Assembly: GCA_049424145.1 (NCBI GenBank)
Contig: JBMSSC010000047.1
Coordinates: forward strand, 1 to 18,112
DNA: 18,112 nucleotides
Direction of reading: 5' to 3'
Origin: Bdellovibrionia bacterium
Lineage (GTDB): Bacteria > Bdellovibrionota > UBA1018
Part shown: one piece after another, positions 7,070 to 17,370 of the stretch
Position numbering within the stretch: the first letter of the stretch is position 1
Layout of the letters: each line of letters begins with the position of its first letter
Translations under genes and position numbers: made by a program
The notes under the pieces: model-generated
Told to the model about the DNA's origin: nothing
The model's input: the letters and a program-made list of their open reading frames with translations, nothing else
Databases searched by the model: none

Positions 7070-7441
7070 CTAGGCGTAGATTTTCTCTTTATGCTCTTGC
7101 TTCTCTTTACAAGAAACACAGAGAGTAGAGACTGGACGAGCCTCTAGGCGTCTGGGTTCAATCTGCTCCTCGCAGTCTTGACAGATGCCAAACGTCCCGT
7201 CATCCATTCTCATGAGTGCTTCATCAATCTTCGAGAGCAGCTGGCGCTCTCGGTCTCTGAGTTTGAAGATCAAGTTTTGATTGATTTCGCTTGCCGCAAG
7301 ATCCGTTTCATCGGGAAGATCGTCGATGGATAGGGTTAGGTCATTTTTTAAGGAGTTCTTCGTATTATTTAAGATGCGTTGTTTTTCTTCAATCAGTAGC
7401 CGCTTGTATTTCAGGATCGTTTTTGGATCGAGTGTACTCAT
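7070..7441 (-). CDS. dksA: DksA/TraR family RNA polymerase-binding protein with C4 zinc finger
   Basis: Coiled-coil tip DETDLA (DxxDxA), KIDEALMRMDDGTFGICQDC...IEPRRLEARP..LCVSCKE. ATG at 7441 follows the SD-like GAAGGGGG (123 aa). Confidence 0.92.
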   Translation of the reverse strand: MSTLDPKTILKYKRLLIEEKQRILNNTKNSLKNDLTLSIDDLPDETDLAASEINQNLIFKLRDRERQLLSKIDEALMRMDDGTFGICQDCEEQIEPRRLEARPVSTLCVSCKEKQEHKEKIYA

Positions 7442-7513
7442 GATGTCCCCCTTCAAAAGTGAAATTCAGCCCCAACATCCTTAAGTTGAAGATTCTCTTA
7501 TGGATCTTCCGTT

Positions 7514-7543: not shown

Positions 7544-7700
7544 ACAGCAGTTGACTGAGAAGAGTGGCCGAGAGGAGAAAAATGGAGATCGCTCGCCTGG
7601 GGCTTGCCCCTGGTTCCGTTTTCAAGGAGCCTTGGGGCCTTCTTGTTTGCGTTCCAATTGCCCAAGGGCTATACCCATCAGTACGGTACAGTCCAGCAGA

Positions 7701-7756
7701 AGGTTTCAGAAACTTGGCCTTCCCGTGAGTTCTGGTTTACAAGTTTCTAGAAACTT
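7701..7756. repeat. pair of related palindromes (candidate operators)
   Basis: Perfect 16-bp palindrome AAGTTTCTAGAAACTT at 7741-7756 and near-copy AGGTTTCAGAAACTT at 7701-7715. Confidence 0.55.
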
Positions 7757-7869
7757 CGCCCACGGAACTGTGGGAAAAGGCACGTGAGAGACGAAATGAG
7801 ATGGAATGAGGGAGTCATTTCTAAAATCGCAACCTCTCAGAAGCTCGAATCCAAGGTGAGGACGTCACG

Positions 7870-9339
7870 ATGATGGAGAAACAAGGTCGATCTGTGGGTG
7901 TCATGATTTTGGCAGCAGGCTCTGGCAAGAGAATGAAGTCTGCGCTTCCTAAGGTTCTTCATGAGATCGGGGGAAAGCCGCTTCTGTATTTTGTTCTCCA
8001 AGCGGTCCGTCAATCTCTTCCTTGGGCAAAAGTCGCACTCATTGTGGGCTATGGGCGTGAGCAGATCGAAAGTTATGTAAAAAATGAGCCTGAGTGGAGG
8101 GGGATGGACATTGAGTTTATTCTTCAGCCCAAGCAATTAGGCACAGGTCACGCTGTGGCTTGCGCTTTGAAGTCAGTCTGGGCAGAACGCCTTGCTCAGG
8201 CTTCCGCCTCAGTTTTGGTTCTTCCGGGAGACCAACCCCTCATTACAGCGGATCTGATCGAAAAACTCGTGGAACCCTTAAAGCGAGGGGAGGCTCTGCG
8301 GCTTCTCACCTGTGAATTAGAGAATCCCACGGGCTATGGACGAGTGATCCGTCGGGGGAAAGCAGGCAGTGTCCTTCGAATTGTTGAGGAAAAAGACGCC
8401 ACCGTGAAAGAAAAGCAGATTCACGAGGTGGCTAACTCCATCTATTTTTTCTCCCTGAGTTTTCTCAAGCAAACCATTGGTAAGTTAACCAATCAGAATG
8501 CTCAGGAAGAGTATTACTTGACGGACCTCATTTCCCTGGCCAGCCGAGCTAAGAAGAAAATTCCAGTTTTAAAGTGGCAGAACTCTGAGGATTTAAGAGG
8601 CGTCAATGACCCGTGGCAGTTGGCTCAAGCTCAGGCGATCCTCAATCAAAGAACCCTGTTTTATTGGTCTCAAAGGGGGGTTCGTTTCTTAGATCTCGCC
8701 TCAGTTCGAATCGATGCTTCGGTGGAGCTCGATGATGGGGTTGTCATTCACCCGGGAGTGATTCTCACGGGCCAAACCCGGATCAAAAGTCACTCCACTT
8801 TGGGTCCTTACGTGATCCTTCATGATGTCGAAGTGGGGAGTGGGGTTTTTATCAAAGCCGGGAGTGTGGGCGAGAAGTCAAAAATTGGGGATCACTGCCA
8901 AGTAGGTCCTTATGCCCACCTGAGAGCAGAAAATGAGATTGGATCCCAGGTGAAAATTGGAAACTTCGTGGAGTTGAAGAAAACGAAACTCGGTAACTCC
9001 ACCAGTGTTGCCCATCTGTCTTACTTAGGAGATGCAGAAGTGGGCAAGCGTGTGAATATTGGATGCGGGTTTGTGACCTGCAATTACGATGGACGAGTGA
9101 TTCAGGGTCAGCGAAAGCATCGAACTCTGGTGGAAGATGATGCGTTTGTCGGAAGTGATTGCCAAGCGGTTGCTCCGGTTCGAATTGGACGAGGAGCTTT
9201 TATTGCCTCAGGATCCACCATCACCGAAGATGTTCCCGCTGACGCCCTGGCCATTGCGCGCAGTAAACAGGTGAACAAACCAGGGTATGTCGAAAAATTG
9301 AAGGGAAAAAAAGGAGCAGGCTCATGTGTGGAATCGTAG
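7870..9339 (+). CDS. glmU: bifunctional UDP-GlcNAc pyrophosphorylase / glucosamine-1-phosphate N-acetyltransferase
   Basis: ILAAGSGKRMKSALPKVLH, QLGTGHAV, GYGRVIR, RIVEEKDA, EYYLTD, GVND; hexapeptide repeats with GNFVELK, HLSYLGDA, NIGCG, TCNYDG. Start at 7870 or 7873. Confidence 0.98.
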   Translation: MMEKQGRSVGVMILAAGSGKRMKSALPKVLHEIGGKPLLYFVLQAVRQSLPWAKVALIVGYGREQIESYVKNEPEWRGMDIEFILQPKQLGTGHAVACALKSVWAERLAQASASVLVLPGDQPLITADLIEKLVEPLKRGEALRLLTCELENPTGYGRVIRRGKAGSVLRIVEEKDATVKEKQIHEVANSIYFFSLSFLKQTIGKLTNQNAQEEYYLTDLISLASRAKKKIPVLKWQNSEDLRGVNDPWQLAQAQAILNQRTLFYWSQRGVRFLDLASVRIDASVELDDGVVIHPGVILTGQTRIKSHSTLGPYVILHDVEVGSGVFIKAGSVGEKSKIGDHCQVGPYAHLRAENEIGSQVKIGNFVELKKTKLGNSTSVAHLSYLGDAEVGKRVNIGCGFVTCNYDGRVIQGQRKHRTLVEDDAFVGSDCQAVAPVRIGRGAFIASGSTITEDVPADALAIARSKQVNKPGYVEKLKGKKGAGSCVES

Positions 9340-11403: not shown

Positions 11404-12657
11404 ATGATTTTTTGCCAAGATCGATGCAGGGGAAAAAAAAGAAACCCTGGACTCATCGGAGTCCTAGGGGTCTTTTTGGGGCTACTTTTGCCTCAGTCCA
11501 GTCGTGCCGTCTCTCAAGATCGATCCTCCCTAAAAATTGGCGATCTTGTTTTTTACATGGATTCGCTGGGTAAAGCAGAACACGTCGCTTTGTTTGCAGG
11601 CTTTGATCCGGAGGAAGAGATTCCTCAAGTGATCCATGCGGTCGCAGAGCCCCATTTTAAGGTCATTTCCACTCAGTTAAGGCCCTCTGAGATTCCCTAT
11701 GTGATTTATCGGAATAAAAATCGCGCCTTATCACTTTTTGCCTATGCTTTAATGGAGTCCTGGGAGGCTGGGGGCGTTCCCTATGATGAGAAAGCTTCAG
11801 AGCTCATGGATCAATTTCGAGACCATCGGGAATTTGCTCACCCGGTGGAGGGTACGGAGCGTTTGTATGAGTACGCTCGTCAGATGAGTGTGCCTAATTT
11901 TTACCGAAGAATTAAGTTTGCAGCCCGTCGAGGCGCGAGTCCTGTATTGCCTCCTGATCAGCGGATGGGGAGCATGGGGCGCGGCCTGAGATGTGATGAG
12001 GCGGTCATTTTGGCTTATCAGATCGAAGAGTTGGCGGATGTGGTTTTAAACTTGTTTCAGTGGGCATCACGAGTGCCTTGGGTTTCAGATAAGTACCTAG
12101 ACGAAGAGGTGTTAAACGACCCGTCGATTGCCCGTTTTGTTTCCCAAGAGTATCGAGATTACCTCAACCGACTCAACTCCAAAGAAGAGTACCCGCTTGT
12201 GGAGTCTAAAAAACGGTTAAATGCCCCTCATCAGAAGTTTCACCCCTCAATTTATGCTTGGAATTTCGAGAAGTTTGGGTCGATTGAAGAGTTTGCTCAG
12301 AATTTTGATACCTCCCTCCCATTGGATGCAAAAATTACAAATCCCGACGTTCTTCTTCATCACCTGAGGCAAGATCCTCAGCACTGGGTCAGTGTGGGTG
12401 AGGTTCTGATTGAGCCCTATCGGAACTCGCCTGAGCGCAAGCTCAAGTGGAAGAACCATCTGGATGAGCTTGATGAGGCCTCAAAGAGTCTTCAGCAAGT
12501 TCTGGTGCTCTTAGTGCGGGATCGGGCCACTCAAGCGGCAAAATCCGATTGGACCGCTCAAGACTTCAAGCGTCCTTACCCTCGAGCCCCGCTGCCGGCT
12601 GAGTTTGACTCGCCTCGGGGTGTCACCTTTCATCGAAGGACGTTTTCCTTCCAATAG
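11404..12657 (+). CDS. exported protein, putative circularly permuted NlpC/P60 (YiiX/YebB/LRAT-like) papain-fold enzyme (417 aa)
   Basis: Signal peptide (basic RGKKR, hydrophobic LIGVLGVFLGLLL, SRA cleavage). Motif order is LKIGDLVF...EHVALF (H60)...VIHA (H78)...VPYD...GLRCDEAVILAYQ (C197)...ITNPD. The CDS itself is very likely real; the family call is inferred from motifs. Confidence 0.7.
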   Translation: MIFCQDRCRGKKRNPGLIGVLGVFLGLLLPQSSRAVSQDRSSLKIGDLVFYMDSLGKAEHVALFAGFDPEEEIPQVIHAVAEPHFKVISTQLRPSEIPYVIYRNKNRALSLFAYALMESWEAGGVPYDEKASELMDQFRDHREFAHPVEGTERLYEYARQMSVPNFYRRIKFAARRGASPVLPPDQRMGSMGRGLRCDEAVILAYQIEELADVVLNLFQWASRVPWVSDKYLDEEVLNDPSIARFVSQEYRDYLNRLNSKEEYPLVESKKRLNAPHQKFHPSIYAWNFEKFGSIEEFAQNFDTSLPLDAKITNPDVLLHHLRQDPQHWVSVGEVLIEPYRNSPERKLKWKNHLDELDEASKSLQQVLVLLVRDRATQAAKSDWTAQDFKRPYPRAPLPAEFDSPRGVTFHRRTFSFQ

Positions 12658-12733
12658 CAGAGGCCGATTTTTCCCTCCGGTAGCGCGGGATCTTGCTAGA
12701 AGATCGCGCTCTTCTATGCGAGAAAGGGGGGGA

Positions 12734-15052
12734 ATGATGGATTTACGCTCGGGGCTGAATGAGCCTCAACGAGAAGCAGTGCTTACAACAGAGGGTCCTT
12801 TATTGGTTTTAGCGGGTGCGGGGGCCGGAAAAACCAAAATGCTGACCTCTCGAATCTCCTATCTGATTGACTCTTGTCGAGTGCCTCCGGCTCAGATTCT
12901 GGCTTTGACCTTCACCAATAAAGCGGCAGGTGAGATGAAAGAGCGAGTGGAGAGGATTCTCCGCGTGAGCGAAAGCTCCGCATTGGGATCGCCTGAGATC
13001 GGGACATTCCACTCCTTTTGTATTCGCTTACTGCGGCGAGAGCTTCCTCATACGCCTTTTACTCGCTCCTTTGTGATTTATGATGACTCGGATCAACTGA
13101 GCCTGATTAAGAGCGCCATGCAGAAGCTCAGTATTGATGAGAAGAGTTTTAGTCCCAAAGCCATTCAAGCCAAGATCAATCGAGCCAAGTGTGATGCCTT
13201 AGGTCCTGATGAGATTTCGGCTTCTCCGATGGATCTTTTTGCCCGACAAATGAAGCGAGTCTATGAGCAGTATCAGAAGGATTTATTCGCCAATCAGGCC
13301 CTTGATTTTGGTGAGATCCTTTGCTTGACGTATCGCCTTCTGCGAGATCAGCCTGAAGTTCGGCAGAAGTATCAGAGATGGTATCGCTACATTCACGTCG
13401 ATGAGTACCAAGACACCAATCGAGCCCAGTATTTGCTCCTTTCTCTGTTAGCCTCGCCCATTCATGGTGGACACCAGAATATCTGCGTCGTCGGGGATGA
13501 AGATCAGTCGATCTATAAATGGCGAGGGGCGGATATCCATAATATTTTAGACTTTGAGAAGGACTACCCTGGGGCCAAAATCGTCAAGCTCGAGCAGAAT
13601 TATCGATCCACGCAAACCATTCTAAAAGCAGCGGGAGTGGTGATTCGAAACAATCAGTCTCGAAAAGACAAGACACTTTGGACTGAAAATGAGCCTGGAT
13701 CAAACCTCATTTGCGCGCAATTGGCTGACGAACGTGCGGAAGCGGAGATGACGATTGCCGAGATCCAGCGATTGGCCTTGGATCAGAGTCGCTCGTTTGA
13801 TGAGTTTGCCATCTTTTATCGGACCAATGCTCAAAGTAGGCCTTTTGAAGATGTCCTCAGGCGCGAGAAAATTCCCTATCAGATCGTAGGCGGTCTTCGC
13901 TTTTATGATCGGAAAGAAATTAAAGATCTGTTGGCCTACTTCAAGCTCATCGCCAACCTCTCCGACTCGGTCAGTTGCAAGCGTGTGATCAATGTCCCTG
14001 CCCGTGGCATTGGAAAAACCACTTTGGAGCGTCTGGAGGATTTTTGGAACTCCCAGACTTCATCCGGTTCTCTTTCCTATTGGGAGGCCTTGGTTTCAGC
14101 CACTCAAGATAAACAAGTGGCCTCGGCCGCTGTGGCAAAGAAGCTCAATGGGTTTGTGCAGATGGTTCAGCTCTTCGTGCAGAAGCAGCCCGAGCTCTTG
14201 CTCTCGGAACTCTATCACCTGATTTTGGATGAAACGGGGTATGTACGAGAACTGAAAAAAGAAGGCACGGAAGAGGCCACCGCTCGCATTGAGAACTTAG
14301 AAGAGCTCAATACCTTGCTTTTGGAGTTTGAAGAGGAGATTTTAGAGAAAACCCAAGAGCAGCACCGCCTGGAGAAGAAAAAAGAGCTGCTATTTCTTTT
14401 CATCGAGCAGACGGCCTTGGCCTCAGACGTGGATCAACTCTCCTCCGACCAAAGTTCAGTGAAACTCATGACCTTGCATTCTTCCAAGGGACTGGAGTTT
14501 CCCGTTGTCTTTATGGTCGGCATGGAAGAGGGTCTGTTTCCCTCCGTTAAACCTTGGGAAGAAACTCCTGAAGAGGATCTAGAGGAAGAACGCAGGCTTT
14601 GTTATGTGGGCATGACCCGTGCTCGTCAGGTTTTATATCTGATGAGTGCCACGATTCGACGCATTTGGGGCAATATCAGTTATCAGGAGCCTTCCCGGTT
14701 TTTAGCTGAAATCCCGCCTGAGTGCCTCGAGATGAGAAATGGCTCGGCTGCCTTAGGCTCCCGGTTCTCGCGCTTAGGTTCCTCTCGACATTGGGGAGGC
14801 TCAGAGTCGTTTGAGGACTCATCGAAAGTGATTGCTCGCATCGGTCCTCAGGGCTCAGTGGTTCGGCTATCCCACCGGTCTGAAGCCGCAACGAGTGATT
14901 GGGTGGGACGAGCCATGAATCATCCTGAGTACGGTCCTGGAACCATCGTGTCCAGCGAGGGCAGTGGTGAGGATCAAAAAGTCACGATTCGATTTTCAGG
15001 TCGGCAGTTGAAGAAGTTCTTACTGCGCTACGTGTCCAGTTACTTAGAGTAG
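12734..15052 (+). CDS. pcrA: SF1A DNA helicase PcrA/UvrD
   Basis: LNEPQREAV Q-motif, AGAGAGKT Walker A, TFTNKAA, VDEYQD, VGDEDQSIY, EQNYRST, YRTNAQSR, MTLHSSKGLEF, EERRLCYVGMTRA, and C-terminal Tudor-like HPEYGPGTI..VTIRF..KKF. Start is ATG 12734 or 12737 after a G-rich SD, not TTG 12605. Confidence 0.96.
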   Translation: MMDLRSGLNEPQREAVLTTEGPLLVLAGAGAGKTKMLTSRISYLIDSCRVPPAQILALTFTNKAAGEMKERVERILRVSESSALGSPEIGTFHSFCIRLLRRELPHTPFTRSFVIYDDSDQLSLIKSAMQKLSIDEKSFSPKAIQAKINRAKCDALGPDEISASPMDLFARQMKRVYEQYQKDLFANQALDFGEILCLTYRLLRDQPEVRQKYQRWYRYIHVDEYQDTNRAQYLLLSLLASPIHGGHQNICVVGDEDQSIYKWRGADIHNILDFEKDYPGAKIVKLEQNYRSTQTILKAAGVVIRNNQSRKDKTLWTENEPGSNLICAQLADERAEAEMTIAEIQRLALDQSRSFDEFAIFYRTNAQSRPFEDVLRREKIPYQIVGGLRFYDRKEIKDLLAYFKLIANLSDSVSCKRVINVPARGIGKTTLERLEDFWNSQTSSGSLSYWEALVSATQDKQVASAAVAKKLNGFVQMVQLFVQKQPELLLSELYHLILDETGYVRELKKEGTEEATARIENLEELNTLLLEFEEEILEKTQEQHRLEKKKELLFLFIEQTALASDVDQLSSDQSSVKLMTLHSSKGLEFPVVFMVGMEEGLFPSVKPWEETPEEDLEEERRLCYVGMTRARQVLYLMSATIRRIWGNISYQEPSRFLAEIPPECLEMRNGSAALGSRFSRLGSSRHWGGSESFEDSSKVIARIGPQGSVVRLSHRSEAATSDWVGRAMNHPEYGPGTIVSSEGSGEDQKVTIRFSGRQLKKFLLRYVSSYLE

Positions 15053-15058
15053 GTCGAT

Positions 15059-15110
15059 AAAAAAGGAAAATAGAGGGCCTCCGTTTGGGGTGATCGGCTT
15101 TCCTTTTTTT
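15059..15110 (+). terminator. possible intrinsic terminator after pcrA
   Basis: 11-bp inverted repeat AAAAAAGGAAA (15059-15069) / TTTCCTTTTTT (15099-15109) encloses a small GC hairpin and ends in a T run. A second hairpin, ACCACCCTC/GGGGGTGGT, lies at 15134-15156. Confidence 0.4.
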
Positions 15111-15199
15111 CTTCCGTTTGAACCCAATGTTTCACCACCCTCCTTGAGGGGGTGGTTAGCGCTTGCCTTCCGGATTTGAGAGCGTTAAAGGGAAGAGGG

Positions 15200-15507
15200 T
15201 GCTTCGATCAAGCAGGTGCAAGGTTCCCACGTGAGCGAAAGATCGCGCAAAACTGATGTGGGGCAAAACCTGTCAAAGCACAAATAAGGTTCAGGAAACT
15301 GGGCGCCTCGTGAGTTCGAGATGACCCATTCCTAAAAAAGTCACCCACGGAAGGTGGGAAAGTGCGCGCGGAGGGCAGGATCGGGCAATTTGAGGATGAA
15401 ATATTCCGAAAATTGTACGCCCGAAGAAACGCGAACCGGGATAATCTCCGGGAAGCTCTGGTCTTGATTCCAGAGAGCCCTTCACAGGAAGTAAAAGGAA
15501 ATTTCTT
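15200..15507 (+). ncRNA. candidate structured RNA / cis-regulatory leader of gatCAB (family unassigned)
   Basis: Eight consecutive or nested stem-loops separated by A-rich linkers, with several G-U pairs that favour the + strand. Details are under findings. Confidence 0.5.
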
Positions 15508-15807
15508 ATGAGCGACCTCAATGCATCTCTCACCGAGCGCGTGGCTCACTTGGCTAAGCTCTCGGTTTCTCCCTCAGAAGTTCAGACCTTCACGCAGCAG
15601 TTGGACGTGATCCTCTCCTATGTTCAAACGTTGCAATCTGTTCCAACCGAAGGCGTTGAGCCGATGACCCATCCGTTTGAAATGGCAGCCTCACTTCGTG
15701 AAGACGTGCCCGAGGTCTCTCCCACAGATGAGAAGGGTGGACCCAAGGTTTTAACCCATGCTCCGGATGTGCTCTATCATGGGTTTAAAGTCCCTCCGAT
15801 TCTCTAA
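15508..15807 (+). CDS. gatC: Asp-tRNA(Asn)/Glu-tRNA(Gln) amidotransferase subunit C
   Basis: RVAHLAKL...QLDVILSYVQTL..VPTEGVEPMTHP...LRED...AP....FKVPPIL; directly upstream of gatA. Confidence 0.96.
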   Translation: MSDLNASLTERVAHLAKLSVSPSEVQTFTQQLDVILSYVQTLQSVPTEGVEPMTHPFEMAASLREDVPEVSPTDEKGGPKVLTHAPDVLYHGFKVPPIL

Positions 15808-15885
15808 CCCCAGAGGCAACGTTCATCTGGGTTCTCGCGGAATTCGAGTCGAGAATCCACTTCATCCCCTTTGACAGGAGTTTTT

Positions 15886-17370
15886 ATGGCACCCGCTCTT
15901 TTTAATGAAAAATATAAGACCATTCAGGACATCCATGATGCGTTTGATCAAAAAGTCCTCTCCCCCGTGGAGCTCACCCAGGATTACTTAAGTGCGTGTC
16001 GATCCAGTTCGCTTGGGGCTTTTCTTGAGATCTGTGAGTCCCGCGCCTTGAATCAAGCGAAGTTTGCCGAGCAAATTCTGTCCCGTGAGGGTCAAGTCCC
16101 TCGAGAGCGCTTTCCCCTCCTGGGCATTCCTCTGGGGATTAAAGATAATTTGACCATCGATGGAGTCAAAACCACCTGTGCCTCCAAGATGTTGGAGAAC
16201 TACATTCCTCCTTACACGGCCACCGCCGTTGAGCGCTTGGAGAAGGCCGGAGCCATCTCCCTAGGAAAGCTCAATATGGATGAGTTTGCGATGGGCGGAT
16301 CCAATGAGAATTCCGCATTTGGCCCAGTGAAGCATCCCAAGCACTTGGACCGGGTTCCGGGAGGATCCAGTGGTGGGTCCGCTGCGGCTGTGGGTGGACA
16401 TCTGTGTGTGGGCGCTTTGGGCTCGGACACCGGGGGATCCATTCGGCTGCCAGCCAGCTATTGTGGCGTGGTGGGTGTGAAGCCCACCTATGGAAGAATC
16501 AGTCGCTATGGGCTGGTGGCCTTTGCCTCCTCCTTGGATCAGGTGGGTCCTTTAACTCACACCGTGGAAGATGCCGCTCTTTTAACCGACGTGATGTCAG
16601 GGTTTGATCCCAAAGACGCAACCTCGGCTCCCTACGAGCCCTTAAAAAGCTTTTCGTATTTAAGTTCCCTGAAGAAAAATCCTCTGGACTTGAGTCAAGT
16701 CAAGTTTGGTGTGCCCAAAGAGTACCTAGTCGGAGGCTTGGCCCCAGAAGTTGAGCAATCGGTTGAACAGGCGATTCACCGCTTGGAGTCCCTGGGTGCT
16801 AAGCGAGTTCCCGTCTCTCTACCCCACACCCCGTATTCGGTTGCCGTCTATTACTTGGTTGCCGTCAGTGAGGCCTCCAGTAACTTGGCTCGCTTTGATG
16901 GGGTGCGCTTTGGCGTGCGCCCAAAAGAGGCAATTGAAGCTCAGGATTTAACGGCCTTTTACGAGGCCGTTCGAAAAGGGTTTGGACCTGAAGTGAAACG
17001 CCGAATTATTTTAGGAACCTTCGCGTTGTCCAGCGGGTACTCGGAGGCTTATTACCGCAAAGCATGTCAAGTCCGGCGCCTGGTGAAGCAGGATTTTGAT
17101 CAGGCCTTCCGTCAGGTGGATCTCATCGTCGGTCCCGTGGCTCCCACCACTGCGTTTCGATTGGGCGAGAAGATCCAGGATCCTCTGAAGATGTACTTGA
17201 ACGATATTTTTACAATCCCAGCTAACTTAGCTGGATTGCCGTCCATGAGTATTCCTTGTGGCCAAGATGCATTAGGGCTTCCCATCGGTTTTCATATGAT
17301 GGCTCCTGCGTTTCAAGAGGAGCGAATGTTTGCCATTGCCCAAAGGCTCTCTCAGGCGTTTCAGCATTAA
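15886..17370 (+). CDS. gatA: Asp-tRNA(Asn)/Glu-tRNA(Gln) amidotransferase subunit A
   Basis: Amidase signature: [40 protein letters not shown]; also [29 protein letters not shown] 15886 follows SD AGGAG (15876-15880). Confidence 0.98.

Follow-up and report, generated by a model that had tools for sequence, protein, structure and literature searches.

The closest described systems belong to the IS200/IS605 insertion sequences. For ISDra2 of Deinococcus radiodurans, the passages of Karvelis et al. (2021; PMC8612924) on the guide RNA describe a reRNA of about 150 nt, which originates from the tnpB 3' end together with the right end of the element and carries at its end a guide of about 16 nt taken from the flank. 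The same passages report insertion 3' of TTGAT, without target duplication and on the lagging strand. PATE-like elements have no gene, and the part of Meers et al. (PMC10055086) dealing with them states that they often encode omegaRNAs, with TnpB needed in trans.

The element studied here occupies positions 15118 to 15485 of the window, i.e., the whole stretch of 18,112 nt that was analysed, and is very probably a PATE-like IS200/IS605 mini-transposon carrying the scaffold of a TnpB omegaRNA (reRNA). An element of this kind is already known (Meers et al., PMC10055086), and the module it carries is the guide-RNA part of TnpB insertion sequences. With the PATE-like elements of Geobacillus stearothermophilus, as far as they are portrayed in that part of the report, it has in common the lack of a gene, hairpin-bearing ends, many copies and a TnpB guide-RNA scaffold at the right end, and like them it would have to be served in trans by TnpA and TnpB. 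Unlike them, it is known from sequence, resides in an uncultured Bdellovibrionota host in whose assembly a cognate TnpB was not found, and contains an extra covarying module of about 110 nt (hairpins H2 and H3) found only in its own genome. With the reRNA of ISDra2, as set out in the passages cited, it shares a scaffold of about 150 nt that ends at the right end and is followed by a putative flank-derived guide; in autonomous relatives of the window element the scaffold likewise overlaps the 3' end of tnpB. The left-end motif is TTGAA or TTGAT here and TTGAT in ISDra2, with no target duplication in either. The likeness is one of layout; the TnpB clade is distant, and the transposon-adjacent motif (TAM) here is a predicted one. 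Unlike in ISDra2, the scaffold in the window stands without a tnpB gene.

Position and boundaries of the element

The spacer between pcrA and gatC measures 455 nt (15053-15507), of which 368 nt belong to the element. The features of the locus and of a second copy in the window are listed below, where R1 and R2 are the models of the last 150 nt and of the middle module, respectively.

12605-15052, plus strand: pcrA/uvrD-type helicase gene, the upstream neighbour (Pfam UvrD-helicase, UvrD_C, PcrA_UvrD_tudor)
15118-15122, plus strand: TTGAA, candidate target motif or TAM just 5' of the left end, by analogy
15123-15485, plus strand: body of the very probable protein-less IS200/IS605-type (PATE-like) element, from blastn pieces in the own genome
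15134-15156, plus strand: left-end subterminal hairpin, ACCACCCTC / CTTGA loop / GGGGGTGGT, from the DNA fold
15221-15271, plus strand: middle module hairpin H2 (AGGTT/AACCT, CCCACGT/ATGTGGG, GCGA/TCGC)
15293-15333, plus strand: middle module hairpin H3, with inner CTCG/CGAG
15336-15485, plus strand: core of the TnpB omegaRNA (reRNA) scaffold, very probably, up to the right end of the transposon (R1, 163.5 bits)
15456-15475, plus strand: right-end subterminal hairpin CTCTGG/CCAGAG (93% of cells paired)
15476-15485, plus strand: 10-nt tail AGCCCTTCAC, 3' of the right-end hairpin
15486-15505, plus strand: predicted guide segment (16-20 nt of flank, by analogy), which holds the gatC Shine-Dalgarno sequence AAGGA
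15508-15807, plus strand: gatC (Pfam GatC)
15871-17370: gatA (Amidase), 3' of gatC
7649-7894, plus strand: a further copy of the element, decayed, between dksA and glmU (R2, 35 bits at 7649-7752; R1, 28 bits at 7751-7894)

A sequence-only reading of this DNA had delimited a structured RNA at 15200-15507, and all 30 strings that it named were found where it had placed them (30/30). The alignment of copies redraws the unit as 15118-15485. The last stem of that reading, AGGAAGT/ATTTCTT (15486-15507) around the gatC ribosome binding site, thereby falls outside the repeat into locus-specific flank, which from 15486 onward reads AGGAAGTAAAAGGAAA...; in the minimum free energy (MFE) fold, a weak local hairpin outside the conserved unit has the gatC Shine-Dalgarno sequence in its loop. 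Between the pcrA stop and the element (15053-15117), the arms AAAAAAGGAAA...TTTCCTTTTTTT enclose a loop of about 30 nt, which was not called a terminator by the scan. The left hairpin was considered as a terminator and rejected, a T-run being absent on both strands. The ORFs overlying the window element are only mechanical minus-strand frames, whose coding potential was rejected.

A dispersed repeat family in the host genome

The stretch 15118-15485 belongs to a family of dispersed repeats, each about 370 nt long, with about 15 loci of 72-84% identity in its own genome. A blastn search with the spacer returned 11 further pieces of 71-84% identity in this genome, projecting onto window positions 15118-15486, and no match in 40 related genomes. 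The covariance model R1, built from an alignment of the last 150 nt in nine copies (A2), matched 14 loci in the own genome at E ≤ 3.2e-5, four of which are more decayed than the others (on C2, C38 and C64 and at window 7751-7894). The decayed copy of the window at 7649-7894 has a dksA-like gene (7073-7456, minus strand) on one side and glmU (7870-9339) on the other, and its modelled 3' end runs into the called glmU start. Every copy is intergenic, and the neighbours are housekeeping genes with no relation to one another (tex, an ABC-F gene, smpB, ssb, atp genes, queC, hsp20 and others). Since single-base indels distinguish the copies, they have no conserved reading frame.

The 3' end common to the copies is sharp: the sequence ...GAGAGCCCTTCAC (window 15485) ends in TTCAC, and the flanks beyond it are unrelated. 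The terminal TTCAC is present in 12 of 18 aligned module sequences, including all three that are linked to TnpB. At the other end, TTGAA or TTGAT opens the conserved part in six of the eight copies with a readable 5' end; elsewhere, the left edge is TTTGAAC at the tnpA-tnpB element of genome G406 and TTGAA at a copy in genome G071. The element has imperfect, subterminal hairpins at both ends and no terminal inverted repeats. At the position of the left-end hairpin, copies C33, C84 and C19 have hairpins with other stem sequences, and the left-end hairpin of the window copy resembles the right-end hairpin of the element in genome G096. Duplicated bases were looked for by eye in the flanks of ten copies and none were seen.

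In the likely source run, the read depth is 46-51 inside the element as opposed to 5-6.7 in its flanks. Several copies are situated at contig ends, and C94 and C162 probably represent two halves of one copy. On contig C6, a pair of inverted copies (39247-39485, plus strand, and 41079-41231, minus strand, the latter with only its 3' 150 nt kept) flanks a single RCC1-repeat gene (about 39694-40896).

Conserved and covarying structure of the RNA module

The folding energy of the plus strand is -106.3 kcal/mol (z -2.52; two of 100 shuffles as good), while the minus strand reaches z = -3.97. As the plus strand folds only modestly better than shuffled sequence and the minus strand scores lower still, the energy by itself says little and leaves the choice of strand undecided. 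A better-than-shuffled z-score, which the sequence-only reading had named as a check, was thus obtained to a modest degree, and its choice of strand gained nothing from it. The strand is indicated instead by the wobble pairs, as that reading had argued: the aligned modules contain 63 G-U cells and 37 A-C cells, and this excess also agrees with the orientation of tnpB.

The structure that had been paired by eye was mapped onto 12 aligned copies, in which 74.6% of the cells are paired compared with 31-51% for slid partners. Most of the helices proposed at that time recur in these copies, namely CTCTGG/CCAGAG (93% paired), CCCACGT/ATGTGGG (89%), CCGGG/TCCGG (88%), GCGA/TCGC (86%), GGAGGGC/GCCCTTC (82.5%, with no pair changed on both sides), CCCAC/GTGGG or H4 (82%), CTCG/CGAG (81%) and AGGTT/AACCT (78%). 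The stem AATTT/AAATT is partly conserved (69%). The outer part of H3, AGGAA..TGGG/CCCA..TTCCT, is paired to 69% in the register given by eye and to 87.5% in that of the other copies, from which the window copy is shifted by one base, and is therefore conserved only after this shift. Three stems were not maintained across the copies: TGCTT/AAGCA or H1 (40%), GTGC/GCAC (47%) and CGGGC/GCCCG (54%).

RNAalifold on all 12 rows gave one helix only, the partial copies being gappy, and full copies were used instead. For the last 150 nt (A2, nine copies), the structure derived with RNAalifold is paired in 88.6% of the cells, with seven pairs changed on both sides, compared with 22-47% in slid controls. 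Over 18 module sequences (A5), pairing reaches 85.9% of the cells, and changes on both sides affect 31 of 40 pairs and 66 cells; none of 500 shuffles scored as high and slid partners were paired to 26-44%. A5 is an alignment fitted to the model and so leans towards the structure of the latter, but its margin over the controls is still large. The central proposal of a structured plus-strand RNA is borne out by these conserved, covarying helices.

The middle module with H2 and H3 was aligned separately (A6, eight copies), giving 87.5% of cells paired, 13 cells changed on both sides and none of 500 shuffles at its covariation score. In these copies, 85-97% of the H2 cells are paired with three pairs changed on both sides, and the corresponding figures for H3 are 87.5% and 81% with two such pairs. 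Model R2 of this module matched only in the own genome and neither in the tnpB-linked loci nor in G071, and the 5' half of the element was absent from the same loci and from G071 in searches with nhmmer and R2, save for part of the left end in locus L043. That the middle of about 170 nt, with H2 and H3, covaries but has no match in the TnpB-linked loci counts against the reading as a TnpB-related element.

Association of the module with tnpB in related genomes

Outside the own genome, R1 matched three of 115 genomes of the same order (G096, G102 and G071), all of one family. The match in G096 (68 bits) shares its strand with a 394-aa TnpB ORF, overlaps the final ~150 nt of this ORF and reaches 18 nt beyond the stop codon; the ORF has the domains OrfB_IS605 and Cas12f1-like TNB. 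In G102, the match (83 bits) lies directly 3' of the TNB domain of a TnpB ORF. This ORF (locus L041, G102:C235, 676-2586, minus strand) is open through the omegaRNA region into a uracil-DNA-glycosylase (UDG) domain (residues 499-609), an arrangement that resembles an in-frame insertion immediately upstream of a UDG gene. G071 contains two protein-less copies.

When 401 genomes of the phylum were searched with a profile of the TnpB proteins from G096 and G102, six homologue loci were obtained in this sample and no match in the own genome at E ≤ 1e-40. Of these six, R1 run without filters matched just one, the closest, in G406, as a weak match of 15 bits (E 0.002-0.005). Its position coincides exactly with the 3' end of a TnpB ORF of 464 aa, and its last letters are GTTCAC. 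Beside this tnpB is a divergent IS200/IS605 Y1 tnpA gene of 161 aa, and beyond tnpA the left end shows TTTGAAC followed by a hairpin resembling the right-end hairpin. Locus L048 has a decayed tnpB homologue gene with module remnants recognisable by eye only, and the remaining four loci gave no R1 match. A contig scan with the TnpB alignment added no new case, as its two loci were the query's own contig and one identical to L042. The independent TnpB-linked cases thus number only three. The proteins of G096, G102 and G406 pass the NCBIfam model guided_TnpB (RNA-guided endonuclease TnpB) with 190-232 bits against a cut-off of 100, and in all three the module match overlaps the tnpB 3' end on the same strand (3/3). 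Since the last 150 nt of the element match this tnpB-overlapping RNA module both in sequence and in a covarying fold, a PATE-like mini-transposon with an omegaRNA scaffold is the very probable identity of the element.

Searches of Rfam yielded no match at the gathering score in the whole window, in agreement with the earlier remark that no family was recognised. At E ≤ 10, two sub-threshold matches were obtained over 14950-15650. One lies on the minus strand at the left hairpin, concerns the L2-Alphaproteobacteria leader and was taken as chance. The other is RF03015 Transposase-2 at 15426-15479 with 14.8 bits (25.3 bits in the best copy, C6:35677-36041), against a gathering score of 42.7. The likeness concerns the last ~54 nt of the element, with GAAaCGCGAAC followed by two hairpins; however, the match spans one third of the module and, being below the gathering score, makes it no member by the Rfam rule. 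The literature search returned no description of the Transposase-2 motif, and the passage found in PMC5737381 is unrelated. The novelty proposed from sequence therefore holds with respect to Rfam families at threshold, but not with respect to class, as the module belongs to the known guide-RNA part of TnpB insertion sequences. The fallback of that reading, a stand-alone ncRNA, came close, since a structured RNA is present on the plus strand; its very probable identity is that of a mobile-element omegaRNA scaffold.

Transposases, promoter and age of the insertion

No cognate TnpB was found in the 95%-complete assembly of 193 contigs, where the best tblastn match to the G102 and G096 proteins has 25% identity over 183 aa. 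As repeats often remain unassembled, the absence of a TnpB from the genome is not established by this result. Among the TnpB-like loci of the own genome, none has the module on the right strand. The genome contains five Y1_Tnp matches, of which only that on C10 is intact (121-aa ORF), and the resident Y1 TnpA genes have 29-39% identity to the TnpA of G406 over the main aligned stretches. A decayed Y1 transposase pseudogene precedes the copy on C2, which is 190 nt downstream of it. In the window itself, one of the five matches, a fragment of a Y1 (IS200-type) transposase, is present at 486-659 on the minus strand (Pfam Y1_Tnp positions 65-121, 50.8 bits, 82-aa frame).

The promoter scan called no plus-strand site inside the element, and a weak candidate noted by eye, TTGCCT-17-TAAAGG, was rejected, since it is not conserved in the second subfamily. 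As the element has no convincing promoter of its own, its transcription would probably be read-through from pcrA.

A gatC match was obtained in 24 relatives, and in 12 of them the locus also encodes a pcrA C-terminus, upstream of gatC and on the same strand. The pcrA-gatC spacers of these 12 are approximately 64, 660, 492, 813, 56, 0, 28, 1002, 18, 11, -10 and 14 nt, so that the spacer is at most 64 nt in eight of the 12, as opposed to 455 nt in the window. The contigs of four DNA runs yielded no empty site, as they contain no joint that skips the element, and the single joint seen (15213 to 15304, with 91 other letters) is another copy. For this reason, we infer the exact left boundary and the TAM. 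The junction between element and gatC is also bridged by contigs of two other studies, one of them from a relative that is about 86% identical, which shows that the insertion is not recent.

Alternative explanations

Co-option by the host comes next in probability, although we regard it as unlikely. The orphan elements would then act as structured 5' leaders or intercistronic modules that influence stability, processing or promoter activity independently of TnpB. The missing cognate TnpB in the assembly fits this idea, as do the positions of the copies: at least 10 of 14 loci have the orientation of the gene that follows, and in eight of 14 an ORF of at least 80 aa begins 3-30 nt past the end of the copy on the same strand, although these downstream ORFs are mechanical calls. 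The same is found for six of ten well-kept copies, which precede gatC, smpB, an integrase gene, the gene of an AMP-binding enzyme, an ORF before atpB and an unknown 147-aa ORF. However, an orientation bias is expected from strand-specific insertion at the replication fork, as described in the passages of PMC8612924 on insertion, and the short spacers of a compact genome force closeness to start codons. Short spacers, a bias of strand, or selection for transcripts that read through the copies could bring about their closeness to co-oriented starts; since no promoter of the element was found, selection for being transcribed can also explain the co-orientation. Co-option is further favoured by the covariation of the genome-specific H2/H3 module and by the gatC insertion in contigs of other studies, one about 86% identical, but covariation can date from the spread of the family with a TnpB.

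The main proposal of the sequence-only reading, that gatCAB has a cis-regulatory leader of its own (riboswitch- or T-box-like and sensing tRNA or Gln/Asn), is now highly improbable. It drew on the structured element directly upstream of gatC on the same strand, the lack of an Rfam family at threshold and the Shine-Dalgarno sequence in the loop of a weak local MFE hairpin. That hairpin is outside the conserved unit, and the element is also found at about 15 loci beside unrelated genes. In the three of 115 other genomes of the order that have the module, it never adjoins gatC, and the pcrA-gatC spacers of eight of the 12 relatives, at -10 to 64 nt, are far shorter than that of the window. The claim of a gatCAB-specific leader is abandoned on these grounds.

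The guide of an IscB omegaRNA is at its 5' end. An origin from another mobile system (IscB omegaRNA, IS110 bridge RNA, a group II intron fragment or a retron ncRNA) would likewise produce a multi-copy structured RNA with sharp ends, but it is just as improbable as the gatCAB leader: here the variable segment is 3' of the scaffold, all three protein-linked relatives (3/3) adjoin TnpB, and in G406 also a Y1 TnpA, and Rfam gave no match to the HEARO, group II intron or retron families.

Least probable of all, to the point of being negligible, is an sRNA titrating CsrA/RsmA, which had been offered as an alternative on account of 11 GGA triplets and to which the csrA gene of the own genome and a GGA in one conserved hairpin loop (CCCAC-GGAAG-GTGGG) could be added, but the triplets, although correctly counted, are not enriched (mean 8.9, sd 2.3 in mononucleotide shuffles, 25% of which reach 11), no Csr/Rsm RNA family was matched even at E up to 10, and the conservation is explained by the link to tnpB.

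Proposed mechanism and implications

As a PATE-like mini-transposon, the element would have been pasted in single-stranded form by a Y1 TnpA acting in trans, 3' of TTGAA and 22 nt upstream of the gatC start. The role of TTGAA as the TAM is proposed by analogy with TTGAT of ISDra2, as given in the passages cited from PMC8612924. Transcription of the plus strand would yield the scaffold RNA, and gatCAB is probably transcribed through the element. The 16-20 nt at the 3' end of this RNA (AGGAAGUAAAAGGAAA...) would be flank sequence and may serve as the guide; this assignment of the stretch past 15485 follows the reRNA layout of ISDra2 in the same passages (PMC8612924). After excision, a cognate TnpB in trans could cut the empty donor joint, consisting of TTGAA and the guide sequence, and the element would be restored by recombination. 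Since the assembly contains no cognate TnpB, the window copy is probably an orphan or a relic today.

For the host, the finding removes a false lead, as there is no new riboswitch-like leader for tRNA-dependent amidation, and it describes an element family that persists in a genome where no cognate TnpB was found. If co-option were true, TnpB omegaRNA scaffolds would have been domesticated without their nuclease and would set the expression or stability of essential genes. For annotation, the element family is of practical help, because its repeats break metagenome-assembled genomes (MAGs) and mimic novel ncRNAs. Above all, the analysis documents a family of TnpB guide-RNA mini-transposons in the Bdellovibrionota with defined ends, a likely TTGAW target motif and a covariance model, R1, that links the element to tnpB genes in relatives, and it adds a natural pairing of scaffold and TnpB to the catalogue of compact RNA-guided nucleases.
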